Notes: a model not told the origin generated them from the sequence alone. 63,808 bases of DNA, filler included, from Trichomonas gallinae (GCA_008369845.1; 10 parts of 10 records of this genome joined end to end with filler, not necessarily neighbours in it), one strand, 5' to 3'. Positions 20,346 through 48,327 are shown, counted from the whole stretch's first letter. Made by a program: numbers and translations.

Positions 20346-20933
20346 TTGGAATATAAGCTTCTCAGGTTCGCACCTAATAAAGAGAAAATCCCTCCTGGAA
20401 TTATTAAATATATATATTCCAAAAACCAATCAGCTGTTAACGTTTCAGCAAGTTCAACAGGAAGAGGCAACGTCGCAAATATATTTAATGGACTTACTTC
20501 TTATTGGGAATCAGCAAACATTTCAAACTCTTGGTATTCTATAAATTTTCCAGATTATCTTCTGAAAATAGATTCTTTATCAATGTTTTCATGCTATTCT
20601 TACTCATGTCCAACTGGATTTAATGTTTATGCTATTTCTGCAGCAGGACAAAAAGAATTAATTTGCGAATTTAATGAAACGACAGATGCGCGATTCAGAG
20701 CACAAACTGGTAACATATCATGTTCTTCTTCAACATTTTATTCAAGTTTTTTATTAGAACAAACAAAAATGTCAGGATCGGAAAATCATATTTTCAGCTT
20801 TTATTTTTTTGAATTTTTTGGAGACCTTTACATTCCGAACCTGCCAAAATATTATCCAAAATCATGTGAAATTAACTATTTTAGAAATTTCAATTTTTTG
20901 ATACATGTTTTTATTTTTTTGTCAGATTCATGA
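20346..20933 (+). CDS. F5/8 type C / galactose-binding-like domain protein, array copy A1 (no in-frame ATG at N-terminus; begins at TTG)
   Basis: GII.YI, SASS, F.G..SYWES...NSWYSI.F, FEFFGDL motifs; paralogous to A2-A5; in-frame TAA at 20322. Confidence 0.75.
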   Translation: MEYKLLRFAPNKEKIPPGIIKYIYSKNQSAVNVSASSTGRGNVANIFNGLTSYWESANISNSWYSINFPDYLLKIDSLSMFSCYSYSCPTGFNVYAISAAGQKELICEFNETTDARFRAQTGNISCSSSTFYSSFLLEQTKMSGSENHIFSFYFFEFFGDLYIPNLPKYYPKSCEINYFRNFNFLIHVFIFLSDS

Positions 20934-21354
20934 ATAAAACAAACTTTATACAGCTTTATTTACCATAAAATTCAATATATCATAAATGAAATATATAAGA
21001 GAAAAATTGGATAAAGATTATCCTTATAAACTGGTTTCCCTAAGGTGACCCCATTATCAGACAAAAAGTGAGAAAAATGGGATTGTTCTAGAGATGTATC
21101 AACGAGGATAGATAAGAGAAAATTATTATCGATGGCAGAAAAATCCAGTGACCCGGGAAAATCGCTAATATGGTCAAAAATTAGTTGGCACCATGGTATC
21201 ATGAGAAGGTAGCATTAAAATTGTATCCGAGTCAATACTTTCAATAGTTTACATTCTGAAACGGTTTCCATTCAAAATTTTTTATATAAAATAACCTGAT
21301 CTTGAAAAGTGACAAAAATGTAGGACTGTTTTTCATTAAAATAGATCTGATTCA

Positions 21355-21942
21355 TTGTCATACAGGTTTTACAAATTTGCTCCATATGAATCAAAAACTC
21401 CTAATGGTATAATCAATTATATCCATACCAAAGAGAATTCTGCAGTAAAATTATCAGCGAGTTCAACAAGAGCAGGAAATATAAACACAATATATGATGG
21501 TCTCAACTCATTTTGGGAATCTCAAAATTCCCCAAATTCTTGGTATGCAATAAATTTTTCGAATAATTATCTTGCAAAAATTAATTCGCTTTCCATGTTT
21601 TCTTGTTATTATAATGAATGTCCAACTGGCTTCAAAGTTTACGCGCTTTCGTCTAATGGAAAAAAAGAAATAATTTGTAATTTCGATGAAGAGCGAGTCA
21701 GTCGACGATTTATGTATCAAACGGGAAATTTAGAATGCTCTTCATCTTCATATTACTCAAACTTCCTTTTAATGCAAACGAAATTAACAAATAATTATAC
21801 AAATGTTTTTAGTATTTATTATCTAGAGTTATTTGGTGAACTTTATAATACAAATGAGATATATGAAACATCAAGATTTATCTATTTTGGCTTTGTATCT
21901 ATTGTTTATTTACCTTTATCTGTTTTCATTGAAATTTCTTAA
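21355..21942 (+). CDS. F5/8 type C-like protein, copy A2 (begins at TTG)
   Basis: Same motifs as A1 (SFWESQNSPNSWYAINF, LELFGEL). Confidence 0.75.
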   Translation: MSYRFYKFAPYESKTPNGIINYIHTKENSAVKLSASSTRAGNINTIYDGLNSFWESQNSPNSWYAINFSNNYLAKINSLSMFSCYYNECPTGFKVYALSSNGKKEIICNFDEERVSRRFMYQTGNLECSSSSYYSNFLLMQTKLTNNYTNVFSIYYLELFGELYNTNEIYETSRFIYFGFVSIVYLPLSVFIEIS

Positions 21943-22240
21943 ACTTTTTATAGTAATGTTGATGAATTTATTGGAAAAGAGGAAATAAAAATATCTTATA
22001 TTCTTATTGTAATTTACAATAACCGTATATTCCAGACTATCTTCCAGAAACTAATTTTCGATCTTCCAGAGTCCAAATTATCTTCCAAAGTTGCATCCCT
22101 AACTATACTAAATGCATTTCCTTGATTTGCTTTCATATTATATGTTAGCCTGCAAAATTTTGATTTTTTTTTTGAAAAAGTGGTTATAAAAGTGACATTT
22201 ATGATGTTATATTGCATTTCTTTAGTGAAAAAGATTTTAA

Positions 22241-22837
22241 CTGGAATATAAGATCCATAGATTCAAATTTGATAACACAAATCCTATACAAGGTATTTTT
22301 AACTATATTACTAGAAAAAACGTTTCTGAGATTAATGCTTCTGTTAGCTCAGCCCGTGCAGGAAACGCATATTCTGCTTTTGATGGATTCAAATCTGCAT
22401 GGGAATCTCGACCAATTGAGAATTCATGGTATGCTTTTAATTTCAATAATTATTTAGTTAAAATTGATTTTTTAACGATGTATTCATGCGGGAAAAATGC
22501 ATGCACAATGGGATTTGATTTGTATGCATTTACATCAAATAACAGGACAGAATTAATTTGTAGATTTAATGAATCCGATAGGGCAAAAGCCGTCGGTGTA
22601 ACATTGAAAGTAAAATGTTCATCTACTACATTTTATTCTAGTTTTGTTCTGCAGCAAACAAAATTAAATACAGATTCAAATTACGTTTTTGGATTTTGGT
22701 ATTATGAGATATTTGGTGATTTGTATAATATTAACACGCCTAAAATTCAAGAATGTACTTGCCGCGTCATAGGTTATGGTAGTAATTTGTTTTTATATTT
22801 ATATGTTTTCATCACGATGATTAATGAAACTTCATGA
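22241..22837 (+). CDS. F5/8 type C-like protein, copy A3 (begins at CTG directly after TAA; the ORF track shows only the 3' part)
   Basis: Manual translation LEYKIHRFKFDNTNPIQGIFNYI...SAWESRPIENSWYAFNF runs in frame into track ORF 22478..22837. Confidence 0.75.
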   Translation: MEYKIHRFKFDNTNPIQGIFNYITRKNVSEINASVSSARAGNAYSAFDGFKSAWESRPIENSWYAFNFNNYLVKIDFLTMYSCGKNACTMGFDLYAFTSNNRTELICRFNESDRAKAVGVTLKVKCSSTTFYSSFVLQQTKLNTDSNYVFGFWYYEIFGDLYNINTPKIQECTCRVIGYGSNLFLYLYVFITMINETS

Positions 22838-23028
22838 ATAATGAATGAAATTAAAATTGATATTTTAACTATATAGATTATATTATTTTAAGCAATAATA
22901 TATGAAGATTAATAAATTTTGGGATAATCATTTGACAAAAAATAAAAAAATGTCAAATATATTTTTGACAATTAAAAAGTGTCATTTTTATTTTGACATC
23001 TCAATGATGTTGAAAAAGGCAATTTTCC

Positions 23029-23625
23029 TTGGAATATAAGATTCATCGATTTGTATATAAAGAAGCAAATCCAACCAATGGCATTATAAGCTATGTTCAT
23101 GCAAAAAATTCTTCTGAATTAAATGTATCTGTCAGTTCTGCGAGAAAAGGCAATGCAGAGATAATTTTTGATGGGAAGAACCATGATTGGGAGTCAAATC
23201 CTATTCCAAATCAATGGTTTTCAATTAAATTTAATAATTTTTTAGTTAAAGTTGATTTTTTGTCAATGTATGGGTGTCATACCGGTAATTGTCCGATGGG
23301 ATTTGATGTTTATGCATTAAATTCCAAAGGTGAAAGAGAATTGATTTGTAAACTGAATGAAACTGATAAAAAGAATGTCATCGACAAAACGATTAAACTA
23401 AATTGCTCATCTACAACATTTTATTCAGATTTCCTTTTACAACAAACAAAACTAAATACTCATAATAATGACATTTTTGGATTTTATTATTTTGAATTAT
23501 TCGGTGATCTATATAATATGAATACACCCAAATACCACATTTGTTCGAATAACGCTGCAAACTATGAATTTAGATTCTCCTGGTTCTATTCAGTTTTTTA
23601 TCTAATTTATAGTGACAATACATAA
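23029..23625 (+). CDS. F5/8 type C-like protein, copy A4 (begins at TTG)
   Basis: LEYKIHRF...DWESNPIPNQWFSIKF...FELFGDL; in-frame TGA at 23011. Confidence 0.75.
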   Translation: MEYKIHRFVYKEANPTNGIISYVHAKNSSELNVSVSSARKGNAEIIFDGKNHDWESNPIPNQWFSIKFNNFLVKVDFLSMYGCHTGNCPMGFDVYALNSKGERELICKLNETDKKNVIDKTIKLNCSSTTFYSDFLLQQTKLNTHNNDIFGFYYFELFGDLYNMNTPKYHICSNNAANYEFRFSWFYSVFYLIYSDNT

Positions 23626-23855
23626 ATATTTTTAATTAAATGCATGACAAAAAAAAATGTCCACGTTTATTGTTCCATGCCGCAAATTCCCAAAAATAAC
23701 TTAAAACCTAATAAAATTAATATAAAAACCTGGTGCAATTACATAAGCGAATTGAGACTCAATACGCTAAGGCTAAACGTGACTTGGGGTTAAAAGTGTC
23801 ATTGTGTCCTCATAAAATATGCTTATTATGATAAAATGATGATTTTAATAGATAT

Positions 23856-24452
23856 ATGCTACCATACAAGTTTTACAGATTCAGCCCTGATTCTTCAAAA
23901 GAGCCGCCAGGCATTATTAAGAAAATTTATGCAAAAGATCCAGCATTAATTTCTTTATCTGCGAGTTCGACAAGTCATGGGAGATTAACTGATATATTTG
24001 ATGGTTACAAATCATATTGGGAATCGAATAATGTTTCAAATTCCTGGTATTCGATTAAATTTAAATATTATTTAATAAAATTAAATTCATTTTCGATGTT
24101 CGCATGTTATAATAAAAATTGTCCGACTGGATTTAATGTATTTGGAATTTCACAGAATGGAGTAAGAGAATTGATTTGTGCTTTTAGTCATTCTGATGAT
24201 ACTTATTTTAGAAATCATATTGCCAACTGGCCTTGCGTATCTAATACATTCTATTCTAACATTACTTTTGAACAGAATAAGTTGACAGGTCAAAATACAA
24301 ATATATTTGGATTTTATTTCTTTGAATTTTTTGGAGACCTATATGATATTAACGCTCCAAGAGTATATCCATGTTCCTGCCCTATAAATGTTTACTTAAA
24401 ATATATCCAAGGCTCATATTTAATGACCGTATTGCCATTCCTAGATATGTGA
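23856..24452 (+). CDS. F5/8 type C-like protein, copy A5 (the only copy with ATG, directly before the conserved Leu)
   Basis: MLPYKFYRF...SYWESNNVSNSWYSIKF...FEFFGDL. Confidence 0.78.
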   Translation: MLPYKFYRFSPDSSKEPPGIIKKIYAKDPALISLSASSTSHGRLTDIFDGYKSYWESNNVSNSWYSIKFKYYLIKLNSFSMFACYNKNCPTGFNVFGISQNGVRELICAFSHSDDTYFRNHIANWPCVSNTFYSNITFEQNKLTGQNTNIFGFYFFEFFGDLYDINAPRVYPCSCPINVYLKYIQGSYLMTVLPFLDM

Positions 24453-24821
24453 GATACATGTTATTCTTAGATTTAAAAATAAAAACATTATCAATATGAA
24501 TTTCTTTATGGTCTTGTTATATGATATATGTATACATTATTCAATTTCTAATTATACCAAAGTTTTGAGGAAATTGTTTAATATTGAAACAAAAAGGTGT
24601 AAAAGATATTTATTGGATATTCAATATAAAAACTGCGTTTCGACATCAAAAAATTCGAGTGCTCACGCATGCGTATTTAAAAAAAATAACTCTAAAATTA
24701 TCTTTAAAAAATGTAACTTCAATTAAGAATACAAAGTTTACTATATACATTTTAAAATACGGTTGCTATTTGAATTAATGAATTATCGTTGAGAAAAATA
24801 ACATTTTATTTTGATAGTTGA

Positions 24822-27800
24822 TTATGGAAGAATAAAATGAAGCAAATCTTCATATTCACGGCGCGAAAGTTTAATAAATGCCGAATAAAGTTCATCGTTA
24901 TTAATAATGCTTCGTACTTCCTCAATGGATTTAACAAATTTATCAACAAACTCTGGTTTGCAAGTTCGAATAAAGTGAGCCAAGAAGACGACACTGAATA
25001 TATCGATATCAGGGTTGATGCAGATCTGCCCAACAACAATGAACATTGGGTCAAATGTAGCTGGAGACATGCGAAGCGCATTAGATAATATAAGGCAAGT
25101 CTCGACATTTCTAAAACGACGGAAAATAGTCTCAGAAGCTTTGATGTAGTCAACAACGAAGTCAATGTTATCACGTGATGTACGTGTTAAATATTCATAA
25201 TAAGATGAAAGTATGCGAGAAACTCCACTGCTGAATACAACACTGAAAGAGTTGATCATTAGTTGAGTGTCTAGTTTGATGTTGCCACTCTTGCGAAGAA
25301 GAAGACAGTTGGCTTCAATGAATGTTGAAAATCTTGGATCGGAAGATCTGACCATTGTAGTCTTGGATAATTTAGGAAGGAACTCGCTTCTGATGTTGTC
25401 GAATTTCATGTAGTTGCAGAGTGAAATTGTGAAGTCGCTGATGATTTTTGTTGCAGCTGGATTTGTGCGAAGGAAAGTAATAGCTGACTCTGATTTCCAA
25501 AGGCAATCATATATAGCTTCCCATATATATACTTTGTATGGGCATCTGAGAAGAAATGTTACGCATTCTAATCCGTGAATCTTCGATGATGGAAGCTCGA
25601 GCGATAAAATATTAGATATGTAGCCTCTCTTAACCATGTTTCCTGAATTAGCGAACGAGAAAACTTCGCATAGACACATGCTGAATGTTTCTATGCGACT
25701 GTTAGATCGTTCGTGTTCATCTATATCAGAGAGAAGCCTGTCACCTGGTCCGCGAGCTCTGAAGAAGTAAGCGAATATTCCTGAAAGTTCCCTGCGAGCT
25801 GTATCATTTGCGCGCATGAATGGATGAAGGAGACCGATGTATTCGGCTCTGAACATTGAAGCATCATTGGACTGAAGATTTGGATTGATAGATGAAAAAT
25901 GGCATCTTATCATTCTCAATAGAGAAGTAATCTTTTTAGAAGAATAATCTTTGTCGACTTTTTTAATCTGAGCGAAATTGAATTCTGTGATAACTTCTGG
26001 AGAATTATTGAATTTAGAAAGGAAAATTGTGAGTTTGATGAAATTCTTGCTTTTTGCAACGAAACTTGACAAAAATATCTTCAAATAGTGCGAAATATTA
26101 TTCTTGATGATTATATCTGTGATTGTGTATTTGCTTGTTAACTCATTTATTAGATTTGAGTCTTTGTGATCATTCAATGTTTTTTCGTTTAATTTCAGGA
26201 GTCTCAAGACATTTTCGTTTGATGACTTAATGAATTTGTTATATATTTCTTCTTTGATAATTAGATTGTGGCGTTCACAATATGATGCCATTGCGATGAA
26301 CAAATCTTCGTCAATTTTATCGATAGTAATTGATTCAATAAGATTGTCCAATAATGTTTGTGTGATTTTTTGTGTTGAGAATCTGAAGAATGATTTGATG
26401 AGAGAAATTTCACTGCATATTTCTCCTTTAGGAAGTGTATTTGATATTGTTGCTTTCTTGCTGCAGTTTGTCGTGATTTTTTCATGGAATTCTTTTGTTT
26501 CGATATTCTGGATAAATCTTGAGAATCTCTTTGGATATTTCTTGCTAAACTCGTCAAGATTTGTTATTTTTATGTTATCATATTTAAGAGCAAACATTAT
26601 ATGTTTGTCATCTGTTGATTCCGAAATATTAACATTATAATTTTGTAATGATTTGACGTATGAAGCAAAATCTGTGTCAAGAATTGGCCAATCGTCAAAT
26701 TTGATTGTTTCTGGGATAGTTTGTGGTTGTTGATTTGTTTTGATATTAAGAAGGAAAAGTTCTAATTCATCATTAATTGATGATTTGATTTGTTCGAATC
26801 TGCTTTGAGCTTGATTTTCATCAACTGTTTTTGCAATTTGATAAAATAATTTTAATTCGGTTGCATTGAGAGAAGATTCATTCATTACTCCTAAGAAATG
26901 GTTAGAAATGTTTGCTATAAAATCTTGTCCACAATTGCAAAAGAAATCAGCACAGATAGAAAGGGTGTGAAGGGAGCTGCTGCATGTGACAATGTTTAAG
27001 ACAGATTTTGCGAAATTAACGAATGATTCTGTTTTTGAATTTTCGAATACCTTTGTGCAACATGGAATTATTTCGTCTGGGAATATTTTGACGAGATTGG
27101 ACATGAATGATGTGCAAATTATTGGATTAATTTCCATCAAGAAAAGGAATGAACTCAAAAGTGCAGAATATGATGATGATTTATCTAATAATGAAAGATC
27201 TGATGCAACTATATCAGTTTCTAAAGTACTTATCAAAGCAGGAAGGTCATCATACTTAAGTAATGATTGTATTGGTGGATCATTTTGTGTGACAGATTTG
27301 TACAATCGACAAACCCAATCTAGTGTAAAGTCTCTTAAATTCTGCGATGATTTAATTTTGAATTTCGAAATAAATTTGAAACCCAAATCAGCAACTTGTG
27401 GAGTTGTTGTGTGGAATTCAACTAACTCACAAACAACGTAAACGTGCTTAATGAGTTTGTCGAATGGAATAATGCATGAAACAGCATTCAAAACACTTAA
27501 ATATCTGACGCATGAATCCGAATCAAAAATGTCTGTTTTTGAAATTATTTCGTCAATCAAACCAAAATTATCCAATGTTATGAAGTTTTTAACGACTTTA
27601 GTTGCTGTCCTTGATAACTCATCCTGTTGTGCAAAAGCATAATTGACTATAATTTTAACGACGAGTTTTTCGAGATTCTGATCCAATGAAAATATTCCGT
27701 CTATTGTGATTTTATCCAATAATTTCACTAAAGCGTTTTGCTGGACCCATGTCATGTTTTCTATTGCAATGAGATGATATATGATATGCTTGACACCTTC

Positions 27801-29434: not shown

Positions 29435-29506
29435 GGGTGCATAGCTCAGTGGTAGAGCGCAACATTTGCATTGTTGAGGCCGAGGATTCGATCTCCCCTG
29501 CATCCA
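29435..29506 (+). tRNA. tRNA-Ala(TGC)
   Basis: Cloverleaf: acceptor GGGTGCA/TGCATCC with G3:U70, D arm GCTC/GAGC, anticodon stem CAACA/TGTTG with loop TTTGCAT, T loop TTCGATC, discriminator A, downstream T run. Confidence 0.9.
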
Positions 29507-29511
29507 ATTTT

Positions 29512-31105: not shown

Positions 31106-31933
31106 AAATTCAGCGAAAACAAAGAAACAACCGATTTACTTATTGAATCCACCATTTTTGATAGTTGTTCATCGACATCACATGGGGGATCTCTTCATTT
31201 TGAAAAAGGTGAATGCATCCAAGAACGTGTTTGCTACTACAACTCTACTTCAACTCAATGGGGACATGCATATTCATCTGTTGTCACCATACGACAAAGA
31301 AATTATGCAAAAATGTCGAGCTTTTGTTCATGTGGCAATTTTGACAAATCAATTTGTATTAATCCAGATTATGGAATTGTTCAAATTGATAATGTTAATA
31401 TGTCTAATAATATAGGAATTAATAGACCGTTATATGATATTGATAGTGCTGAATCAAATAGTTTCATCCAATACACAGAATTCATAAATAATATCGAAAA
31501 AAGCCCATCAGCCTATACTTATTATGCAGGAGCAGATTTCAAAGTCATGAACTGTAATTTTTTGAAAAATCATGGACAAACAAATCCAATTGATAAATTA
31601 TTGTATTGTTATTCATCTACAACAGTTGAAAATTGCTGTTTCAAAGAAAATAATTGTCAATATGCATTTTATGTTGTATCCGGAAAAACAATGATAGTTC
31701 AAAATTGTTATTATGATATATCAACAACTTCAGGAGGTGCAGTTCAGTTTGTCTCCCCAAAAGGTGACAGCAATCCCGTTTCATTGACGCAATTCTTTAT
31801 AGAGAATTGCTTTGGTGCCCAGCAAAAACGAAACAATTATATCTGCTCATGCAATGATATATATCAATATCAAAGCCTAATAAATTTACTTACAAAATCA
31901 TTTCATATCTCAATATTAATAGAAATTTATTAA
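31106..31933 (+). CDS. Right-handed beta-helix / Pmp-like Cys-Asn-rich protein, copy B1, 3' part (5' part at 37860-38092)
   Basis: Open frame from the contig start KFSENKETTDLLIESTIFDSCSSTSHGGSLHFEKGECIQERVCY into track ORF 31313..31933. Confidence 0.75.
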   Translation, partial: KFSENKETTDLLIESTIFDSCSSTSHGGSLHFEKGECIQERVCYYNSTSTQWGHAYSSVVTIRQRNYAKMSSFCSCGNFDKSICINPDYGIVQIDNVNMSNNIGINRPLYDIDSAESNSFIQYTEFINNIEKSPSAYTYYAGADFKVMNCNFLKNHGQTNPIDKLLYCYSSTTVENCCFKENNCQYAFYVVSGKTMIVQNCYYDISTTSGGAVQFVSPKGDSNPVSLTQFFIENCFGAQQKRNNYICSCNDIYQYQSLINLLTKSFHISILIEIY

Positions 31934-32103: not shown

Positions 32104-33141
32104 ATGCGAGGAATGTCAAATTTCATATCGGATGGAATTAAGGATAAAAATTTAGCAAAGATTTTTCTTATACTTAAGGATTGGAATTCATATTACGGTA
32201 ATACAGACCATGAATCAATTCAAAACAAAATACCACAAAAAAACTTATTTGTTACATATGGAGCATCATATTATATTTTCCTATGTAACTTTATCTTACA
32301 AAGAACAAATGGAGCCATCAGGTTTACAAAGAATACAGAATCCACGAATCTGCTAGTTGAATTCAGCATATTTGATAGCTGTTCATCGATATTTGATGGT
32401 GGATCCCTTTATTTTAAAGATGGAGAATGCATCCAGGAAAGAATTTGTTATATTAATTCAACATCTGATAACTATGCTCATGCAATATGGACTCAAAGCT
32501 CTACAGGCCGCAAGAACTTCCTTAAATTATCAAGTGTTTTCTCTTGTGGTACATTTGAAAAAAGTACCAGTATTACATTAGGGAGAGGCTTTATTCAAGT
32601 GGAAAATTTCAACATGTCAAACAATATTGGAAGAAGTGCAGGATATTATTTGTATACAGAAGATATATGGAATTTTATTCAATTTTCAGATGTAATAAAT
32701 AATACCGACAAATCACAGACAAATCCTTATTTTCAAAATTGCAATAATTTTAAAATAATGAACTGCAACTATCTAGAAAATCATGCGCAAACTGCAAAAA
32801 TTAATGCATTGTTGTTTTTTTACAAGCAAGCAACTATTGAGAATTCATGTTTCAAGAAAAATAAATGTATTTATATTTTCCAAGCAGATGAAAATTATAA
32901 AGTAACGGTTATTAACTGTTATTATGATATGTCAGCAGTATCAGGAAGTGTTCAATTTAGTTCATCCAAGAGTGATAATAATACGATCTCAATAACTCTC
33001 TTGGATCTTGAAGAATGCTTCAATTTTATAAATATTCAAGCAGCAAAGAAAATTTCAAGTTCATGCAACGATAATTCAAAGCATCACAGCTTGATTAATT
33101 ACCTATCCAAAACAGTCTATACATCAGTTCATAGCGAATGA
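32104..33141 (+). CDS. Beta-helix / Pmp-like protein, copy B2 (has an upstream in-frame ATG)
   Basis: DWNSYYG, NGAIRF, FDSCSS...GGSLYF, CNY..N, NCYYD motifs shared across the array. Confidence 0.78.
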   Translation: MRGMSNFISDGIKDKNLAKIFLILKDWNSYYGNTDHESIQNKIPQKNLFVTYGASYYIFLCNFILQRTNGAIRFTKNTESTNLLVEFSIFDSCSSIFDGGSLYFKDGECIQERICYINSTSDNYAHAIWTQSSTGRKNFLKLSSVFSCGTFEKSTSITLGRGFIQVENFNMSNNIGRSAGYYLYTEDIWNFIQFSDVINNTDKSQTNPYFQNCNNFKIMNCNYLENHAQTAKINALLFFYKQATIENSCFKKNKCIYIFQADENYKVTVINCYYDMSAVSGSVQFSSSKSDNNTISITLLDLEECFNFINIQAAKKISSSCNDNSKHHSLINYLSKTVYTSVHSE

Positions 33142-33499
33142 TATATAATTCAAACATGAAATTTAAAAGTTTTACCTTCCCAAAGATTAACGTGTTAAAA
33201 AATACAATTGGAAAATTATTCTTCGAGTTTAATTCAATTATTATGAAATCCAAATTAATAATTCTACTATGCTTATGAAAATTAAATCCTTCAAAAAATG
33301 AACAAAAATAGAAATAAATTTTCAGATCACAGAAACTCAATATAATGATGAGTATAACCATACTCAAATGCTTTAGTTCAAAGCACAGCATTCAATTCTT
33401 TTGTCATATTTCATATCGGATAATGATAATCATGATGACAATGTAATTAATAATAATTTTCGAGGATTGGATTGATCAAATCCGAAATACAAACAATGA

Positions 33500-33773
33500 T
33501 ACTGTTCGAATATTTTTCAATTCAAGGATCTGCTTTGAATATTATTAATTGTTGTTATGACAATTCAGCAGCAACAGGAAGCATTCATTTATATCATTCA
33601 ATAACAGCAAAAGTACAATTTCTATTACTAAATTGAATGATGAAGAATGTTTCAGTTATTTTTCAATCAGAAAAGACATTAAAAATATCTATTCATACAA
33701 CAATCCGAAACAAAATAGTTTGATAAAATTTCTAGAATTGTGTATTTCAATTTATGTTAAAAAAATAATATAG
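33500..33773 (+). pseudogene. Decayed 3' remnant of a family B gene
   Basis: LNIINCCYDNSAATGSI, a frameshift, then STISITKLNDEECFSYF...NSLIKFLELCISIYVKKII*; matches the B2 C-terminus. Confidence 0.65.
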
Positions 33774-34112: not shown

Positions 34113-35090
34113 AAATTTATTCTCAGAGATTGGTCTTCATATTATGAAAATACAAATCATATCTCTATTGAAAAGAAAGCGCCACAAAATAGTATTGTAG
34201 TCACCAATGGATCTTCTTATTTTATTTTCGTTTGTTGTTTCATTGAACAAAAAGTCAATTGAGCTATAAAGTTCAGCGCAAATACAGAATTAACAAATTT
34301 ATTATTAGATTCCATAATTTTTTATTGCTGTTCATCCACAACTAGTGGATGATCTCTATTTATTAGATACGGTGAGTGCATCCAAGAACGAGTAAATTAC
34401 GTAGATTCGAAATCTCAGTCTACTTCTAGTGCCTATTTTTCAAGCGTTAGTATAGGGAAACGAAATTATGCGAAGTTATCAAGCATTAGTTCATGTGGCG
34501 ATTATGGGCATTCCTATTGCATTGATCCAAATTTTGGAAATGCACAAATTGATAATGTTAACATATCAAATAATGTAGCTTCTGGTAGATCCGGCTTTGA
34601 TATTGATAATGGTGAAAATAATAGCTTCTTGAAGTTCACTTCTGTTGTGAATAACTCAGATAAAGACGCAGAATCTATTTTAAACTTTTATGGTGGAACA
34701 AATTTAAGCATTATAAAGTGCAATTTTTTAAAGAATTATGGGAAAACAATTCAGATTGGCCAATTATTGAATCTTAATTCAAATACAAGGATAGAAAATT
34801 GTTGTTTCAAAGAAAATGATTGCAGCTATGTATTTTCGATCAGTCCAGGCCTTTCAATAATTGTTCTCAATTGTTATTATGATAAATCCACGACATCAGG
34901 CGATTCAATTCAATTCATCTCTCCTGAAGCTGAAAACAGCATAATATCATTGAGTCATTATTATGCCGAAAATTGTTATGAAATTCAACAGTATAAAAAT
35001 AGGATTGATTACACATGTCATAATATTCATCTTCAAAACATGATTAATTTTGATATTAGATCCATTTATATATTGATTATAATTCGTTAA
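34113..35090 (+). pseudogene. Family B copy B3 with two in-frame TGA stops and no ATG
   Basis: FILRDWSSYY...; TGA at 34260 and 34350 replace conserved Gly codons (NGAI, GGSL); frame otherwise intact. Confidence 0.75.
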
Positions 35091-35553: not shown

Positions 35554-36525
35554 AGAAATTCAATATTCCACGATTGGAGTACATATTATGGAAATACAAA
35601 TCATCAATCCTTAAAAGGGAAAGAACCAGAAAATAGTTTAATTGTTACAAATGGACTTTCTTATTTAATTTCATTTTGTAGTTTTATTTTATTGAAATCT
35701 AATGGAGCAGTTCAATTTAATTCGGAAATCACAACAACTAAATTACTAGTCGACTCCACGGATTTTAAGCTCTGTTCATCAGTAATACAAGGAGGATCAC
35801 TTTACTTTAAAACTGGAGAATGCATACAAGAGAAAGTTTGTTATTATAATTCGACATCACAGAGCGAAGGTCATGCCTATTATTCTATTATTGCTGTTAA
35901 TCAAAGATGTTTTATGAAATCATGCAGTGCATCTTAATGCGGCAAATATGAAAATAATCGCTGCGTTTATACTAATAATGGAATTGCTCAACTCGATAAT
36001 TTTAATATGTCAAATAATATTGGAAATGGAAATCCGACATATGGTATTGGAAAAGAGGAATTGGGAAGTTTTATTAAATATTTAAATTTGGTGAATAACA
36101 TTGCAAAAGTTCAAACAAATTTTGATTACTGCGATGGTGCTGATTTCAGAATCATAAGTTGTAATTTTTATAAGAATCATGGTATAACTGATCCTATAGG
36201 ACAATTGTTATATTGTATGACATCTACAAATGTAGAAAATAGCTGCTTCAAAGAAAACAAATGTATAACAGTTTTCTGTGTTGCTTCGGAGAAGACAATG
36301 ATTGTTAAAAACTGTTTCTATGACCAATCTGCCACATCATTAGGGACAGTTCAGTTTGAATCTTCAAATATTGACAGTAACACAATCATTTTCAAGATAG
36401 AAAGATGCTTTGCTTATTTCAATATTAATAATTGCACATGTTATGATAATCAAGAATTTAGAAATTTGATCATTTTGCTTCCTAAGTCAATATATATTTC
36501 ATGTTTAATTCAGACATTTGAATAA
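35554..36525 (+). pseudogene. Family B copy B4 with one in-frame TAA and no N-terminal ATG
   Basis: IFHDWSTYYG...; TAA at 35935 replaces the Ser of conserved SCG; continues in frame into track ORF 36007..36525. Confidence 0.75.
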
Positions 36526-36601: not shown

Positions 36602-37573
36602 AAATTTATTTTAAAAGATTGGGTAACATTTTATGGTAATTCATATCACAAATCAGTTGAAAACAAAGCATCACAAAGCTATTTATTTGTTAGTGATGGT
36701 TCATCTTATCACATTCTGCTATGCAGTTTCATTTCTCAAAACTCGAATGGTGCCATACGATATAGTGGAAATACAGCATCTACTGATTTCTTGATAGAAT
36801 CGACAATTTTTGACAGTTGCTCATCAACATCAGAAGGAGGTTCTCTCTATTTTAATCAAGGAGAATGCATACAAAAACAAGTGTGTTATTACAACTCTAG
36901 ATCATCTTCATCCTCTCATGTATATCATTCGACTGTCACTGCCGGACAAAGAAATTTTATACTTTTGGCAAGTATTCAATCTTGTGGAGAATACGAGCAT
37001 AAGTATGGACTAAATTTAAACACTGGATTTATTAAAATTGATAATGTTAATATTTCAAATAATCTAGGGATATCATATCCTATTTACAGTATTAATAATG
37101 CCGAATCTGGCAGTTTTTTCCAATTTACAACTTTTATGAGTAATATACAAAAAAATCAAGGCGCATTTGCTCATTATGCAGGAATCGATTTGAAAATCAT
37201 TAGTTGCAATTACATCAAAAACTCTGGTTTATCAAATCCGATTTCAATTTTGCTTGATATTCATCCCACTTCAAATTTGGAAAACTGTTGCTTTCTGTTA
37301 AATAATTGTAACACAATATTTTATGTTGATACCGGTAAAACTCTATATGTAAAATATTGTTATTATGATAAATCTACAACATCTGGAGGAAATATTCAAT
37401 TTATATCTCCAAAAAGCAGTAGTAATACCATTGAATTGTCTCATATTAATCTTGGAAAATGTTTTGGGAAAACCAAACAAATGAAATGTTACTATAGTTG
37501 CAATGAAAATCAACCATATAATAGTTTGAATGGTATTTTTAAATCTATTTGCGTGACAATTTATGTTTATTGA
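36602..37573 (+). CDS. Family B copy B5, intact frame but no N-terminal ATG
   Basis: TAA at 36599, then KFILKDWVTFYGNSYH...NGAIRY in frame with track ORF 36791..37573. Confidence 0.72.
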   Translation, partial: KFILKDWVTFYGNSYHKSVENKASQSYLFVSDGSSYHILLCSFISQNSNGAIRYSGNTASTDFLIESTIFDSCSSTSEGGSLYFNQGECIQKQVCYYNSRSSSSSHVYHSTVTAGQRNFILLASIQSCGEYEHKYGLNLNTGFIKIDNVNISNNLGISYPIYSINNAESGSFFQFTTFMSNIQKNQGAFAHYAGIDLKIISCNYIKNSGLSNPISILLDIHPTSNLENCCFLLNNCNTIFYVDTGKTLYVKYCYYDKSTTSGGNIQFISPKSSSNTIELSHINLGKCFGKTKQMKCYYSCNENQPYNSLNGIFKSICVTIYVY

Positions 37574-37859: not shown

Positions 37860-38092
37860 TTTAATCCTATACTCCAGGATTGGTCAGCGTATTATGGAAA
37901 TGTATATCATATTCCTCTTGAAAAGAAAACACCGGAGAATAGTTTAATTGTTACTGATGGATCTTCATATTTCATTCTCCTATGCAGATTCATCAGACAA
38001 AATGATAATGGGGCAATAAAATTCAGCGAAAACAAAGAAACAACCGATTTACTTATTGAATCCACCATTTTTGATAGTTGTTCATCGACATC
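37860..38092 (+). CDS. Family B copy B1, 5' part (no ATG), truncated by the contig end
   Basis: TGA at 37857, then FNPILQDWSAYYGNVYH...NGAIKFSENKETTDLL; last 74 nt identical to 31106-31179. Confidence 0.72.
38019..38092 (+). repeat. 74-nt terminal direct repeat identical to contig start 31106-31179
   Basis: Base-by-base identity AAATTCAGCGAAAAC...GTTCATCGACATC. Confidence 0.93.
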
Positions 38093-41133: not shown

Positions 41134-41220
41134 GAATAAATATGACAAGTAAACAATTATTTGACATATTTATGAATGAATATGACAAGTAAATAATTAT
41201 ATGTCAAATTTATGAATGAA
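41134..41220 (+). repeat. 40-nt tandem repeat (~2.2 copies) overlapping the bromodomain gene start
   Basis: GAAT(A/G)AATATGACAAGTAAA(C/T)AATTAT units at 41134, 41174 and partial 41214. Confidence 0.75.
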
Positions 41221-42036
41221 TTTCAGCATGTAGCATGCAAAATGATATTTGATGTGCTAATGCATCGTCCAATTTCACGAATATTCTGGGAATGCAAGAA
41301 TGGAATCGAGAATTGTTTGATAGAGAAGCCTATTTCACTAAATTTGATTTCTCAAAAGTTGGAAAATCACATTTACAAATCACCAATAGAATTTTCGAAT
41401 GACATTTATACTATGCTATCTAATGCTAAACAGTGGAATAGCGAATTATCAATCAAACCTGCTGCTGCCGATTTATTATACTCAGATTTTCAAAAAGCTT
41501 ATTCTATTTTTAACCCAGCGGATATACCATTATCAATCAAGATAAGAATGAACATGAATGATTTAAATCATTTAATGGAAACATCTGTTTCAAGCACATC
41601 AGATAATTTAACTTCATCATCAGATCCTATAAATTATGTTATAAATCATAGAATAGAAAATCAAGACTTAATAGAAATATTCGATATATTAAAATTATTA
41701 GAGTTGTTAAAATCAACAGAATACATGCTTAAAGTATTAAGATACATATATCACATACAACCAGATGCGATTATTGTCGAAAATGGCATAACATTCCTCT
41801 ATGAAAACGTTCAAAAGCAAAATTATAAAGAAATCTACGACTATGCAATGAAACAAATAACAATTTTTGCATCATCAAGCAAATTACGTCATAATTCATT
41901 CACAGGAAGCTTATACAACGAAATTTTCATTTCAAATAAACAAAACATACAGGAACAGAACAAAGAAATACAACAAACTAATGAAAACAAAGCTCCAAAA
42001 GAGAATCAAGAAAAGAAAACAGAAAATCCAGCGTAA
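41212..42036 (+). CDS. Bromodomain-containing protein (divergent)
   Basis: HRPISRIF, IEKPISLNLISQKLENHIYKSPIEFSNDIYTMLSNAKQWN bromodomain signature. Confidence 0.8.
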   Translation: MNEFQHVACKMIFDVLMHRPISRIFWECKNGIENCLIEKPISLNLISQKLENHIYKSPIEFSNDIYTMLSNAKQWNSELSIKPAAADLLYSDFQKAYSIFNPADIPLSIKIRMNMNDLNHLMETSVSSTSDNLTSSSDPINYVINHRIENQDLIEIFDILKLLELLKSTEYMLKVLRYIYHIQPDAIIVENGITFLYENVQKQNYKEIYDYAMKQITIFASSSKLRHNSFTGSLYNEIFISNKQNIQEQNKEIQQTNENKAPKENQEKKTENPA

Positions 42037-42277
42037 TTTTCTAGAAATTGTTTATTATATTATTTATTATCAAAAAATCATGAGAAGTAGATGGACATTT
42101 CACATATTCGAATCAGATTTTGATAATATTATATTTTACCAAAATATTTTTTAAAGTTATTCTTCATAGAGTTTCATATATTAATAGTTTACATATTTTA
42201 TGTATTTTATTGTTTGTAAATATTTAGGATTTCAAAATTTAATTTTTTAATATAACAAACAAACATAATTATTATAA

Positions 42278-43552
42278 TCACAATTTTTGAGGGGCATCAC
42301 TAACCTGATTAATAACCTTTTTACGCGCAATAGACGACATGGCTTTCTTTATTGCCTTCATTTCTGCATCATCTGCCTTATGACGAGATAATACAAGTGT
42401 TGTATTCTTGGAATCCGATCCACTTTCCTTTGGCGCTCCTCCAAGAATAGGAAGCTTTGTTGACTGTGAACTCATCTTCTTATCGATCTGTATCAAGTAT
42501 TGCTTCAGCATATTCTGCTCATCAAGGTGCTCTTGGATAGTTCTTTCCAGTTCTTTGTTCCTTTTCACTTGGCTTTCGTATCTCATTTTATCATTTGCTC
42601 TTTCGCTTTCGATATAAGCTCTAAGCTCTTTATTGACACGCTGCGCATTCTCGAGTTCTTGTCTATCAAGAGCTCTCATGTGTTTTTTGATATGTTCTTT
42701 TCCGCGATTTATTTCTTCCATGACATGCTCATATTCTTTGTATGTATTTTCGTAGTTTTGGGATTCCATGTCATAGCGCTTTGCGAGAGTTGTTATTTCA
42801 CGTTGTAAAATTGAATCTTCAACTCTTGTATCTGATGTGAACCTTGCAGGCGGCTTGCTTAGCTTTTTCTCGAATTTCTTGTTAACTTGCTCTGCTTCGA
42901 GCTTGAATTCGCGCGTTTCTTGATGAACTTTTTTGTATTCGAGCTTGAAATTCTCGTTATCGAGTTGTGCATATGAATCGATTTGAGATTTTTGTGCATT
43001 TAGCTGTTCTACCATAGTTTGAAGTGATTGTCTTTCTCTTTCGTTGATTTGATATAATCTTCTGAGATGCTGTGTGTTTTGTAACACTTCTTCCTTTCTT
43101 TTACGCACAGCTAGGAATTCATCGCGGATTGCAATAAGTCTATCCGAGACATTTTCAGCATAGCGTGCAAAATCAGCTGTAAATTGATCTTGGAGCGCGT
43201 TATGCTGCTTTATTATTGTGTTAATACATGATGTGAGGATTCTAGTGTATTCCATATGCGTGATAAATGCCAATTTCGTAGCTTGTTCAGGTGTAAAAAA
43301 TTTTTGATCAGCAATTGCTTCGAAATCTCTTATCAAAGCATGCATATCTGATAACGATTGGGTAAATTCAGCCACTTTTTCTGATAATGCGCGGATTTGG
43401 GCATCTTTTTCTGCAATATCACGTTTCATTAAGTCATTTTCTGCTTTTTGATGCGCAATTTCCGAGTGCTGCTGAGTTCTAAACTTTCTAGTCGATGTTT
43501 TGAGAACAGGATCAAGCCCCCACATTGGAGGCCCGAAGATATCCTCAGACAT
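42278..43552 (-). CDS. Coiled-coil hypothetical protein
   Basis: Intact ORF with E/K/Q/R-rich heptads; likely start MSEDIFGPP at 43552 (track starts at 43621). Confidence 0.75.
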   Translation of the reverse strand: MSEDIFGPPMWGLDPVLKTSTRKFRTQQHSEIAHQKAENDLMKRDIAEKDAQIRALSEKVAEFTQSLSDMHALIRDFEAIADQKFFTPEQATKLAFITHMEYTRILTSCINTIIKQHNALQDQFTADFARYAENVSDRLIAIRDEFLAVRKRKEEVLQNTQHLRRLYQINERERQSLQTMVEQLNAQKSQIDSYAQLDNENFKLEYKKVHQETREFKLEAEQVNKKFEKKLSKPPARFTSDTRVEDSILQREITTLAKRYDMESQNYENTYKEYEHVMEEINRGKEHIKKHMRALDRQELENAQRVNKELRAYIESERANDKMRYESQVKRNKELERTIQEHLDEQNMLKQYLIQIDKKMSSQSTKLPILGGAPKESGSDSKNTTLVLSRHKADDAEMKAIKKAMSSIARKKVINQVSDAPQKL

Positions 43553-44701
43553 AGAAGAATAACGTGTTTTATAAAAAGTGTCATTGATAATTTTCATTTT
43601 TGATTTTTTTTCCACAATCATGAAAATCTGCCCAGAAACAAATATTGCACACGTTTCTTTGTCACCATTTGCATAGTTTAATCAACCAAATTCTCATCTT
43701 AACACAATTATTTTATATCGACTAATTGCGGCTAGAGTTTGCGCAAAAAAATTGATAAATGGACCATTAAATGTGTTTTAGGCACTCATATTTTGCAAGT
43801 CGTCATAATTAAGCGAAAAATATCATTAAAATGTATAAAATTACATAATCAGATAAGAATCTCAACTTACAAATCAAGGCATAATTGTTCGCATATGGGA
43901 AGAAGTCATATTGTAAATTCTAACTTTAAAGATTTTATTTCATATTCTGATATCTTAGCACTTGATTAAAGTAATATAGTACTAAGCTACACCAATATTT
44001 CTGTTATTATTGTTAGATCCACAGTGATGTTACTTTATTGATTAAAAAATAAGAATTTTCTGTTGCATGGTAAATTAGATTCATAGCTAATCAGCTTCGA
44101 ACAGTTTACTTTTTGAGATTCTATTTTGATAATAGAGAAATAGTTATATTTTGATAATGCATTATTCGATTTTTTGTAACGAAATAGAGATATAAGATTT
44201 GTATAATAGAATCGCTCAAATTTCCAATGACCATAAAGTCCATATCCTTATAATTTCAAAATTGATATTGTTTGGTATGACATTTTGACAATTTTAACTT
44301 CGAATTTAAATATGAAATGACTACAAAATAAGAATTCTCACAGAAAAGACAAAAGTAAGGTTCCAAAAATTTTGAGAAAACTAATCAATTTTGTATAAAT
44401 ATTAATATATTGTCATTGCACATAATTCTACATCTATTTATCAACATTTTAAAATAAATTGATACTTTTGAGAGTGTTTTCTGAAATAAATGAAGTATAA
44501 TTTTAACACTAAAAATATAATATTATAAAATTTTCTTAAATATAAATTTAAATTAAAAAAACATTCTCATATATCAACAAGATCCAAATATCACATTTTT
44601 ANNNNNNNNNNNNNNNNNNNNNNNNNNNNNNNNNNNNNNNNNNNNTTAATTAATTAANNNNNNNNNNNNNNNNNNNNNNNNNNNNNNNNNNNNNNNNNNN
44701 N

Positions 44702-44754
44702 AACCCGGACCCCCACCTTGGCAAGGTGAAATTCTACCATTAGACCAGCGGTGC
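44702..44754 (-). tRNA. tRNA-Gly(GCC), 3'-truncated by the assembly gap
   Basis: Reverse complement GCACCGCTGGTCTAATGGTAGAATTTCACCTTGCCAAGGTGGGGGTCCGGGTT: anticodon stem TCACC/GGTGG, loop TTGCCAA. Confidence 0.85.
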
Positions 44755-45176
44755 TACACATTCTCTCTTGAAATTTATTATTACTGATGATAATATTTTC
44801 TATATATTTCATATTACCACCTGCTGTAGGTAATGGTGGGCGAGTCACCCATTATTACAAAATGCACAAAGCTTAGCAAAAAATTTAGCTAAGCTTTTTA
44901 TTTTGAGCAAGATCCGCCCAGAAAATCGATCAACATTACAAATATAAATTGTTCGTTAAGGCCAAGAGATTCCACTGGAGTATCATCCAGGAGCATTATG
45001 TCATCGGAAATAAATTTAAGCTGGTTAGAAAGAATACCATTCTCTTTATCAAACACAACTTTTATTTCATAGTTACTTATACTTGTTTTTCTTCAATAGC
45101 TTTTTCAAAAATATATAGATAGTTACATTTATAAGATTCTCAATTAATCTAAATTTTATTCATTTTTTTCTTGTGA

Positions 45177-45773
45177 ATTAGCCAATACCCAGCGGGTAAT
45201 GGCGGATTAGTAACAAAATACTATAACAGGTATAAGGATGCCACGAAATATATATCCTATAATGGTTCAAATCTTAAGATTGATGATAAATGCGATATTG
45301 ATCAAATTTATTTTTGGAATGTTGTCAAATCATATCATACACAGTTTATTTCTACACCTACTGAAAATAAAATATATTTTAACTTTAAACTGAAATCAAT
45401 TATTCAGATTATTCAAATCATAACTTATGAAGAATTTCGATTTCCATTGAAATACAACATATACGGCGTTAGTCATCAAGGTGATACATTTCTAATGTAT
45501 CATCAAACTCAACCAGTTTGTTCAAAATATACTCAAGGCGTTAATTGTGACAAAACAGAAATATACACAATAAATATTCCATTTAACAGCCAAAGGCCTA
45601 TAACTAACATCATTATTTCGAATGATGGACCTGATTCATGTGGAACGTATTGTAATACAATCGGATCCATCGAATTTTTCGGCTATGAATATATTGTCTG
45701 TCCAACAATAAGATATAATAGTCAGAATCGATTGTTATATTTATATCCTTTAATTGATTTTTCAGTTTCTTAA
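45177..45773 (+). CDS. F5/8-type-C-like / galactose-binding-like protein, 198 aa open frame without an N-terminal ATG
   Basis: TGA at 45174, then ISQYPAGNGGLVTKYY...FPLKYNIYG...NDGPDSCG...IGSIEFFG; first Met only ~107 codons in. Confidence 0.65.
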   Translation: MSQYPAGNGGLVTKYYNRYKDATKYISYNGSNLKIDDKCDIDQIYFWNVVKSYHTQFISTPTENKIYFNFKLKSIIQIIQIITYEEFRFPLKYNIYGVSHQGDTFLMYHQTQPVCSKYTQGVNCDKTEIYTINIPFNSQRPITNIIISNDGPDSCGTYCNTIGSIEFFGYEYIVCPTIRYNSQNRLLYLYPLIDFSVS

Positions 45774-45854
45774 TTATATTAAAAATACTTTGTTAATGAA
45801 ATACAATATCAAATACATGCTTAATCATTTAATAAAACCTTTTAAAATACATGA

Positions 45855-46790
45855 TCAATTTGATTGATTTGTAATATCAACTAATTGCTGCTTTGATTTA
45901 ATACCACCTGTTGCTCCTATTGATCTAACAGCTATGGAGCCTGCAGCACAGCCTCTTTTTGCAGAGTTGACAATATCTAAACCATCGAAGAGTCCGCTGA
46001 TGAATCCAGAAACCATTGCATCGCCTGCACCTGTAGTATCGACAGCTTCTGCAATGTAAGCTGGAACTTTCGTGCTGATTTCTTTGTTCTTAATGAAAAC
46101 ACCTTCTTTTCCAAGTTTTATTATAACATTTTTAACACCAAATGATAGGAGATCATCGGCAATTTCGTTAATGTCCTTTTTACCAGTAAGCTGTGATGCC
46201 TCCTGGAAATTTGGTAAAAAGTAGTCAATGTACGGTAAACATTTCTTAGCATCATCTAATGTGTGTCTATCTGCGTGCATCATGTCTGCAACTGTGATGC
46301 AATTTTCATTTTTAGCATGCTCAAGAATATATTTAGCAGCTTCTCCATCAAGTGAAAGGCTACCATATAAGCTACCCAATGATACAATTTTTGCGCCTTT
46401 AAATGCAGTAACATCAATATCTTTTGATGTAATCGAGCTGTTTGTTCCTTCTGCGTTACCGATAAAGTTTCTTTCTCCATTTTTATTTATGAGTACGATA
46501 GTAATTGATGTCGGAAACTCAGTTGTGGTAGTGACCGAACTCATATCGATGCCGCGGCTTTGTCCTTCCGCTAAAAGATATGTACCAACACCATCTACGC
46601 CAACCTTACCGCACATTTTTATTTTGTAGCCCATTGAAGAGAGATTTACAGCTTGATTGAAAGCATCTCCACCTGTAGAGAGCTTTACCATTGAAACACG
46701 TGTTATATCACGGTCAAATATACCATTATCTACGCCATCAGCCAGCACATCTGCGACCATTACTCCGACGCAAACGATATCTGCAGACAT
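45855..46790 (-). CDS. PfkB/ribokinase-family carbohydrate kinase
   Basis: GGDAFNQA, GKVGVDGVG, PNFQEA, IKLGKEG, VDTTGAGDAMVSGF; likely start MSADIV at 46790. Confidence 0.95.
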   Translation of the reverse strand: MSADIVCVGVMVADVLADGVDNGIFDRDITRVSMVKLSTGGDAFNQAVNLSSMGYKIKMCGKVGVDGVGTYLLAEGQSRGIDMSSVTTTTEFPTSITIVLINKNGERNFIGNAEGTNSSITSKDIDVTAFKGAKIVSLGSLYGSLSLDGEAAKYILEHAKNENCITVADMMHADRHTLDDAKKCLPYIDYFLPNFQEASQLTGKKDINEIADDLLSFGVKNVIIKLGKEGVFIKNKEISTKVPAYIAEAVDTTGAGDAMVSGFISGLFDGLDIVNSAKRGCAAGSIAVRSIGATGGIKSKQQLVDITNQSN

Positions 46791-47010
46791 TGACAACTTA
46801 TGACTATATCTCGTATATAACATGATAAAATTTGTGGTATGTATTAATATGTGCTGCTAATATACACTCAATTTAACTCATTTCAATTTTCAAAAATTAA
46901 ATTTCGAACAAAAGCAGTCTAATAACTCTCAAACCACCTAAAATAAATAAAATAGATATTTTCATTATTATTTGAGCAAATATTCATAAATTTGAAATTC
47001 ATATTTAATT

Positions 47011-48027
47011 TTAAAGTAAGATGAAAACTTGAATAAGAAATACTTTTAGATCGATGCATAGAGTTGATATAGGACAAGTTGAATCAGGCTGGAAGGCAGT
47101 TGCAGGAATTCCAGCATTGATATAATCATATTTCTTATTTTGATCTATAATAAAAGCCTTTTTAACATAAAAATTGTTGAATGCGTTTGGTGCAATTGTT
47201 ACATTAGATGGTAAAGTAATATGATTTAAATTACGGATTGAATAGAAACATGAAGCAGAGATAGTTTCTACACCTTCTGGAATAATAATTTCTTTCAGTT
47301 TTGGCATAGCGCCAAAAGTATATTTGTCAAGTATTTTAACATTTGGAGAAAGTATCAAAATTTCTAGGAACTTTATATTTACAAGTCCCCATTTTCCAAT
47401 TTTTGTAATACTATCAGGCAATTTAATGTATTTTAAAATAGAAGTTGAAAATGCGCCATTTTCTATAGAATTAACATTAGGATGATATTCGATTTCAGTA
47501 ACATTTGATGAAACAGCAAGAAGGGCATTGAAATTACTATTATAAATAACATCTTTATACATTTTATATTTTGGATGATTTGTATCTACAGAATAATAAA
47601 CTAAACTTGATCCAAAAGCATTAAAATAAACATATTCAATATTAAGAGATACAAAAAATGAAATGTTAAAATTATTATGCGTGAAAGCATTAGAATGTAT
47701 TGTAGTTATAGAAGGAGAAAGTTTAAGTATTTCAATACTACATAGTCTAAATGCTTCTTGTTCAATTATTTTTAATTTTGAACAATTCGATAAATCAACT
47801 GTTCTTAAATTCGAACAATATGCGAATGCAAAGCTTCCAATTGTCACTAAACCTCTAGGAAATGTAACTGTTTGAAGCGTATCTCTAGATAATATAAATG
47901 CATAATTATTTTCATCGCCGGATTTAATTGTTTGGCATGTATCATCAATCTTTATATCAACTGCATTTTCAACACTGACTAATGTTGTTTTAGTTGTATC
48001 ATCTTCCCAATGAAAAACAGCTCCCAA
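47011..48027 (-). CDS. BspA-like (TpLRR/LRR_5) surface protein, no in-frame ATG at N-terminus
   Basis: LVTIGSFAFAYCSNLRTVDL, VNSIENGAFS, IPEGVETISASCF repeats; TAA-CAC-TTG at the 5' end; first Met ~155 codons in. Confidence 0.85.
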   Translation of the reverse strand: MGAVFHWEDDTTKTTLVSVENAVDIKIDDTCQTIKSGDENNYAFILSRDTLQTVTFPRGLVTIGSFAFAYCSNLRTVDLSNCSKLKIIEQEAFRLCSIEILKLSPSITTIHSNAFTHNNFNISFFVSLNIEYVYFNAFGSSLVYYSVDTNHPKYKMYKDVIYNSNFNALLAVSSNVTEIEYHPNVNSIENGAFSTSILKYIKLPDSITKIGKWGLVNIKFLEILILSPNVKILDKYTFGAMPKLKEIIIPEGVETISASCFYSIRNLNHITLPSNVTIAPNAFNNFYVKKAFIIDQNKKYDYINAGIPATAFQPDSTCPISTLCIDLKVFLIQVFILL

Positions 48028-48327
48028 GTGTTAAATATAATCCGAAGCATCAATTACTAAATTTCATTTGTCACCTTTTAGATTGAAAAATTTTGACACT
48101 TTTAATATTTACAAACGTCATTTTTGTAAAATTGATATTATAACTCACTTTTTAGGGAAAAAATACCACAATTAATATGCCATGTAAACAATCAAAATTT
48201 GATGGATTTTGTTTTGTAAACCATCAAATCTGACGAATAAATAATGTCATTTTTGAAGAATTGCTAACCATTGTCACTTTTCTATTGAAATGTCACTTTT
48301 GCTAGTTGTCACTTTTCAGGTTTCTCT

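Follow-up and report, generated by a model that had tools for sequence, protein, structure and literature searches.

Initiation of translation at the near-cognate codons CUG, UUG, AUU and AUA is known in eukaryotes, where it mostly yields N-terminal extensions or concerns single genes, and its usual genomic sign is coding conservation upstream of the first AUG. Silent variant cassettes of the VSG, vls or VSP-array type have a truncated 5' coding region and no promoter, and a near-identical expression site lies elsewhere. In trichomonads, the expression of "pseudogenes" and truncated family members is disputed (PMC4223856; bioRxiv 10.64898/2026.08.31.748405), and we found no report of non-AUG starts or of start-less gene classes in these organisms in the open-licence literature. 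Here we describe ten frames without a start ATG in a stretch of 63,808 nucleotides (nt) of Trichomonas gallinae DNA (GCA_008369845.1), hereafter the window, whose contigs are joined by N spacers and whose first letter is position 1. They comprise four F5/8-like copies (F1-F4), a distant relative of these (X), four β-helix copies (B1-B4) and a BspA-type gene; with the β-helix copy B0 counted, the class would hold 11 genes. The best reading, to which we give an even chance, is that translation of these genes would start at a near-cognate codon, TTG, CTG, ATT or ATA, selected by its position.

All ten frames announced by a first-pass annotation of the window were recovered by a stop-to-stop open reading frame (ORF) census and a codon scan: each runs without an ATG for 79-176 codons or more, and an in-frame stop lies 0-7 codons upstream of each candidate start. 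An in-frame ATG is present in all 16 housekeeping-type genes of the window that served as the comparison set, as the same annotation had stated. Eight of the ten frames have no internal stop in the part that the window contains; B1 and B2 have such stops. The annotation had spoken of three or four families; three stand, and the fourth falls away because hhalign (probability 96.9) identifies X, at 45177, as a remote member of the F5/8-like family. The length of the ATG-free runs, which it had also noted, had to be abandoned as evidence: ATG makes up 1.0% of codons in the ATG-less families versus 2.2% in the housekeeping genes, and at the family share the chance probability of ATG-free runs of 79-176 codons is an ordinary 0.17-0.45. 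In families so poor in ATG, it is therefore the missing start that constitutes the signal, and not the length of the run.

The F5/8-like copies, X and the motifs found upstream of the array members are the following:

20290..20297, plus strand, AAAGTGAC motif (M2-type), 56 nt upstream of the F1 candidate start
20346..20933, plus strand, F1, F5/8-like ORF, open, candidate start TTG
21306..21313, plus strand, AAAGTGAC motif, 49 nt upstream of F2
21355..21942, plus strand, F2, F5/8-like ORF, open, candidate start TTG
22189..22196, plus strand, AAAGTGAC motif, 52 nt upstream of F3
22241..22837, plus strand, F3, F5/8-like ORF, open, candidate start CTG directly after an in-frame TAA
22975..22984, plus strand, AAAAGTGTCA motif upstream of F4, with TGTCA at -49
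23029..23625, plus strand, F4, F5/8-like ORF, open, candidate start TTG, predicted CBM32-like fold
23856..24452, plus strand, F5, ATG-bearing copy with the same upstream motif, used as internal control
45177..45773, plus strand, X, distant F5/8-like ORF, open, candidate start ATT directly after a TGA

The first ATG of F1-F4 is codon 80-81 and that of X is codon 107, whereas F5 begins with an ATG at 23856. The structure model of F4 (predicted local distance difference test, pLDDT, of 92) matches CBM32 with a Foldseek E-value of 1.8e-7 over 166 columns and has the predicted galactose-binding-like β-sandwich, of which four of the nine strands lie in residues 1-81; a product started at the inner Met would consequently lose much of the fold. 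Relatives of the F5/8-like copies fall in PF00754 clusters of the atlas, which hold proteins of 168-220 amino acids, mostly from Parabasalia; the Pfam F5_F8_type_C family gave no match, with zero families for all five F copies and X. Of 30 homologues looked up through the clusters, none stems from an annotated NCBI record, and the only name among them is one "hypothetical protein".

Two observations touch the edges of these genes. Upstream of F1, a stop separates the frame from an in-frame ATG at 20313; the relative introduced below (X1) has its interrupting stop at another place, so that stops have turned over within 20313-20339, either by chance or because this ATG is kept disconnected. At 44811-44866, a short relic of an X-like 5' end (I-L-P-P-A-V-G-N-G-G...) has, by eye, an ATA in the column of the ATT of X.

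The argument draws on the conservation of the protein before its first Met. It was read from a relative with the same gene order found in one public DNA run, a bird metagenome (X1), and from protein orthologues drawn from that relative and from other assemblies, P0001 and P0004 presumably having the same source as X1. The DNA of X1 diverges from the window by 6.4-7.9% over the F1-F5 pieces and by 6.8% over a housekeeping neighbour. In orthologue pairs, the residues that differ before the first Met number 2/78 for F1, 2/78 for F4, 2/73 for B2 and 5/114 for B3; summed over these four pairs, 11 of 343 residues differ before the first Met versus 56 of 583 after it, a sum that leaves out X, P0137 and also F2 and F3, whose orthologues are called from the inner Met. 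P0137, a second B3 orthologue, differs at 4/115 positions before and 17/145 after the first Met, and the ATG-bearing F5 at 6/79 before and 10/118 after its inner Met. A neutral simulation with the X1 substitution spectrum and 6.5% DNA divergence, the distance to the P0002 lineage being assumed, expects about 11 changes per 78 codons, and the probability of two or fewer is 0.0003 for F1 and 0.0007 for F4. In the covered pre-Met part of F1 in X1, four of the six listed differences are synonymous (P 0.034), and between paralogues the proportions of synonymous and non-synonymous differences (pS/pN) are 0.60/0.33 before the Met and 0.61/0.33 after it.

Coding constraint upstream of the first ATG is seen for F1, F4, B2 and B3, and not for X. 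Neutral evolution of the region before the first Met, the check that the first-pass annotation had set for its own proposal, is not what we find, on the simulation for F1 and F4 and on the counts for B2 and B3, and its contention that random loss of start codons is improbable gains from the orthologue conservation and from the predicted fold. The ATG-less state is shared with the relative diverged by about 7%, as indicated by DNA for F1 and by gene calls for B2 and B3. Because the pre-Met part is conserved and the absence of the ATG is shared with this relative, selection at the protein level likely acted while these genes were without an ATG.

The β-helix array has the following members:

31106..31933, plus strand, 3' part of a β-helix copy, 5' end lost at the contig edge
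32170..33141, plus strand, B0, β-helix copy, open, ATA at the first conserved column of the family
33457..33760, plus strand, decayed β-helix relic, 3' end only
34119..35090, plus strand, B1, β-helix copy, pseudogene here, candidate start ATT, internal TGA at 34260 and 34350, TGTCA at -51
35563..36525, plus strand, B2, β-helix copy, candidate start ATA, internal TAA at 35935, TGTCA at -51
36608..37573, plus strand, B3, β-helix copy, open, candidate start ATT, TGTCA at -55
37869..38092, plus strand, B4, 5' part cut by the contig end, candidate start ATA, TGTCA at -53

The first ATG is codon 308 in the copy near 34113, codon 118 in that near 35554 and codon 177 in that near 36602, and B4 (the copy near 37860) has none in its 75 codons before the contig end. 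The first-pass annotation was right that these copies lack an ATG, and less so in counting B4 as full-length, since it stops at the contig end. B1 and B2, with their internal stops, are ordinary broken copies in this genome, the B2 stop being absent from its orthologue P0005. The 74 nt at 31106-31179 and 38019-38092 are identical and lie inside a β-helix gene at the two ends of one contig, which may reflect a collapsed near-identical copy or a tandem duplication of the 7-kb array; B4 is joined to the 31106 fragment by this 74-nt overlap alone. In all five copies B0-B4, an ATT or ATA stands three codons ahead of the first conserved DW. B0 has in-frame ATGs at 32104 and 32113, that is, 66 and 57 nt upstream of its first conserved codon; these lie at or before the shared TGTCA (32114), a motif that is non-coding in the four paralogues, so that they may be there by chance and B0 may be the eleventh member of the ATG-less class. 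None of six β-helix homologues, which include two paralogues absent from the window and one short-contig fragment, is called from the N-terminus of the family by a gene caller that presumably accepts ATG, GTG and TTG. The copies fall in right-handed β-helix clusters of the atlas (score 0.97, of low recognition value; 304-351 amino acids, mostly from Parabasalia), the structure model has a pLDDT of 49, and Pfam gave no match for them.

The third family is represented by one gene:

47011..48027, minus strand, BspA-type leucine-rich repeat (LRR) gene, open, candidate start TTG, TGACA at -46

Its LRR_5 repeats score 124 bits against a cut-off of 27.7, and an LRR match at residues 73-118 precedes the first ATG, which is codon 156. 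The designation of the whole class as "surface-protein" genes by the first-pass annotation is putative: a hydrophobic tail, mostly behind a Cys, ends 11 of 12 family ORFs, and a hydrophobic N-terminal stretch is found in none of the 12. Similar hydrophobic tails have been described for BspA proteins (PMC2843621).

Several observations converge on the place where the frames begin. Between F1 and X1 there are seven differences in the 56 nt above the TTG versus one in the 67 nt below it, and none is listed at the TTG itself among the 31 of 36 differences displayed for that contig. In 41 of the 49 best single-domain hits, among them the orthologues P0002 and P0003, the protein begins no later than profile position 8; for 33 of these 41, the beginning falls within -4..+4 of the TTG column. 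The distant F5/8-like homologues, which begin at this same column, are by eye mostly devoid of a signal peptide, and no exon therefore appears to be missing. An NTG Leu codon occupies the start column in all four ATG-less F copies, which are not independent of one another, while NTG accounts for 0.25 of the Leu codons of the family. Altogether, a near-cognate codon at the homologous start position, with no usable in-frame AUG, is found throughout the class, less convincingly for the ATT and ATA of the β-helix copies.

The region above these codons has features of its own. The motif TG[AT]C[AG] precedes the candidate start by 44-58 nt in 10 of the 11 genes versus 3 of the 16 housekeeping genes (background 0.08); X is the gene in which no exact copy was found at -44 to -58. 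The motif of F1-F3 is the M2 motif, which has been called non-functional (PMC4223856). Over the roughly 50 nt that separate motif and start, ATGs show no depletion (17 observed versus about 12 expected). Four ATGs, all out of frame, occur in the 40 nt ahead of the start of F5 itself, and the last upstream ATG lies 13-37 nt from the candidate start. In T. vaginalis, leaders are typically short (PMC7370421). We infer that the stretch from motif to start either lies outside the mRNA or is not scanned, and for this reason the start would depend on position. The initiator (Inr; consensus HCAHW, taken from PMC7370421) occurs within 30 nt in 6 of the 11 ATG-less genes versus 13 of the 16 housekeeping genes, and is too degenerate to place the start site.

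The model we propose combines these elements. The genes are whole frames with a near-cognate codon instead of an ATG where their families begin, and they are likely live: TTG or CTG would start the F5/8-like and BspA proteins, and ATT or ATA the β-helix proteins and the ORF at 45177. The TG[AT]C[AG] motif would act as a class-specific promoter element, and transcription would begin either at the motif or, as the simpler option, just ahead of the start codon, by a few bases and past the last upstream ATG. The start would then be set by the distance from the cap and not by scanning for AUG, and the near-cognate codon, read inefficiently by the initiator tRNA, would keep the tail-anchored lectin-like and repeat proteins scarce.

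A number of points weigh against this model. All its steps from promoter to ribosome are deduced from sequence, and alternative start codons were not used in the T. vaginalis case study of Woehle et al. (2014, PMC4223856). The comparison of X with a distant homologue of 68% identity goes the other way, with more changes before the Met (34/94) than after it (24/92); for F2 and F3, the orthologues are called from the inner Met, so that their front parts rest on the window, and one gap letter is unplaced in the X1 piece over F2. The difference counts after the Met take in the fast C-terminal tail. The orthologue of F4 could begin with an ATG, P0001, P0002, P0143 and the distant homologues being known as protein only. 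In the β-helix family, the model of the structure is unreliable in residues 1-102, the ATT/ATA column may reflect no more than conservation of Ile, and there are further near-cognate codons close to it. The candidate starts have no common context and no downstream hairpin (mean z -0.6 versus -0.4), and the distance window of the upstream motif was chosen after seeing the data, with three independent families behind it.

A bolder version, which we advance tentatively and regard as doubtful, is that trichomonads run a second, position-ruled mode of initiation in which the motif about 50 nt upstream would set the start and the codon would be largely irrelevant, and which the tail-anchored lectin-like, β-helix and BspA classes would use.

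The rival explanation that survives best is that these genes are pseudogenes whose start codons have been lost and whose frames are decaying or transcribed as non-coding RNA; as an account of the class we hold it unlikely. In its favour, internal stops interrupt two of the ten frames, the array contains a relic copy, many pseudogenes lacking translation-start motifs are transcribed in T. vaginalis (PMC4223856), and 8 BspA entries without a starting Met and 98 annotated pseudogenes have been listed (PMC2843621). Yet the protein before the first Met is conserved far beyond the neutral expectation, the ATG-less state is shared with a relative diverged by about 7%, the stop of B2 is absent from its orthologue, and many genes would have had to lose their start very recently and in parallel. 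Pseudogene status is correct for B1, B2 and the relic in this genome, and is contradicted for F1, F4 and B3.

A further possibility, which we consider quite unlikely, is that translation starts at an upstream ATG and that a +1 frameshift or stop-codon read-through brings the ribosome into the main frame. The arrangement of the ATGs lends itself to this: of the 22 that lie between motif and start column, 13 stand in the +1 phase, B1, B3 and B4 have one in common at -13, and in F1 and B2 a single stop separates the frame from an in-frame ATG at -33; moreover, read-through and "split genes" have been proposed for Trichomonas on RNA evidence only (bioRxiv 10.64898/2026.08.31.748405). Such recoding may apply to B1, B3 and B4. 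Against it, X has no upstream ATG, and F1, F2, F3 and the BspA gene need at least two recoding events. In X1, the +1-phase ATG of F1 is changed, and both ATGs of F4 appear to be lost through a 6-nt deletion at 23002, the adjacent substitutions not being displayed. The stretch from ATG to start column evolves fast. No single conserved recoding site links an ATG to the frame, as it is absent in X and not conserved in X1 for F1 and F4, and read-through candidates gave no protein in the work of Woehle et al. (PMC4223856).

There is little chance that the AUG is supplied at the RNA level, by a non-canonical cis intron or by a leader exon added in trans. By exhaustive enumeration, an upstream ATG can be connected with the frame through one or more GT..AG joins in 8 of the 11 genes, but there is no such solution for B0, B4 and X, none is shared, donors, acceptors and phases differ among paralogues, and the first donor of F1 is changed in X1. 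Most joins would lose residues that are conserved in F5 and in the distant homologues, and no signal-peptide exon appears to be missing. The trichomonad type A and B 3' intron motifs, in which the branch point is fused to the 3' site (PMC12316389, PMC13548475), were searched as RCTAACACAYAG or TCTAACH1-2AACAG and gave zero hits on both strands of the window.

We see equally little prospect for the view that the copies are silent donors, maintained by recombination or gene conversion with an expressed locus elsewhere that has an ATG. Variant surface-type genes in tandem arrays would suit such a role, the contig break in B4 suggests that a second, almost identical copy exists, and a reservoir function has been suggested for BspA pseudogenes (PMC2843621); the comparison for a partner locus was confined to the window. 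The F and β-helix copies are nevertheless whole and not headless: each carries its domain from the first column of the family, together with its own upstream motif and stop, and paralogues are only 38-58% identical. Each copy has one syntenic orthologue, one X1 contig of even depth spans the 3' part of F1 to F5 and continues into a housekeeping gene, and three unrelated folds would need three expression sites. Of the three mechanisms listed by the first-pass annotation, near-cognate initiation thus fits best, while a cis or trans 5' exon and silent cassettes fit poorly. As for the remaining candidates, translation from the inner Met alone was rejected, as it drops four of nine strands and leaves the upstream constraint unexplained, and so was sequencing error, as independent assemblies carry the same genes and the housekeeping frames are intact.

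The window has 31% GC and densely packed genes, among whose proteins BEACH, kinesin, DENN, Myb, PfkB and BspA family matches are found; together with the AAAGTGAC motif and the predominance of Parabasalia in the atlas clusters, these matches would by themselves suggest a trichomonad-like parabasalid. The housekeeping frames of the window give no sign of introns, and scans of metagenome contigs and genome contigs turned up no related loci. Other features of the window are a 72-nt imperfect palindrome, 85% self-complementary, in an intergenic region (53131-53202), and a tandem repeat of about 111 nt within the coiled-coil-like ORF at 53523, reaching the contig end (55308-55761). A tRNA-Ala(TGC) lies at a contig end (29435-29506), and a probable partial tRNA-Gly, recognised by eye and not called by ARAGORN, lies on the minus strand at another (44702-44755). 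A membrane-protein-like gene at 60503-61436 has a normal ATG and is interrupted by a stop and by changes of frame, as an ordinary pseudogene or through an assembly error, and at 62500-63808 a partial ORF whose 5' end is lost in a gap has a weak match to Big_13 (bacterial Ig-like).

If trichomonads do use such a position-ruled mode, a large hidden proteome would exist among sequences now annotated as pseudogenes, long non-coding RNAs (lncRNAs) or proteins truncated to an inner Met. Were the genes described here translated, parabasalid gene counts, N-termini and surface-proteome catalogues would need revision, and non-AUG starts would be the rule for whole families of eukaryotic genes. These loci offer a sharp test set, with ATG-less genes conserved as protein beside the ATG-bearing paralogue F5.

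In conclusion, our observations place these genes close to three described situations without making them identical to any. They resemble the transcribed pseudogenes and lncRNAs of T. vaginalis (PMC4223856) in being family loci with Inr and M2 promoter motifs and no ATG start motif; those pseudogenes are short broken ORFs, whereas here eight of ten frames have no internal stop in the part present and four are conserved as protein. They recall the "split" or read-through genes of Trichomonas (bioRxiv 10.64898/2026.08.31.748405), also family genes, BspA included, that look broken and are maybe expressed; a split gene consists of two ATG-bearing ORFs on one transcript, whereas here there is no upstream half and it is the start that is missing. 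Finally, as in eukaryotic near-cognate initiation, single-base variants of AUG stand where the protein must begin. Unlike in the known cases, several expanded families would here depend on a near-cognate codon as the only start for most of their members, the codon varying among the genes while the promoter spacing is common to them.

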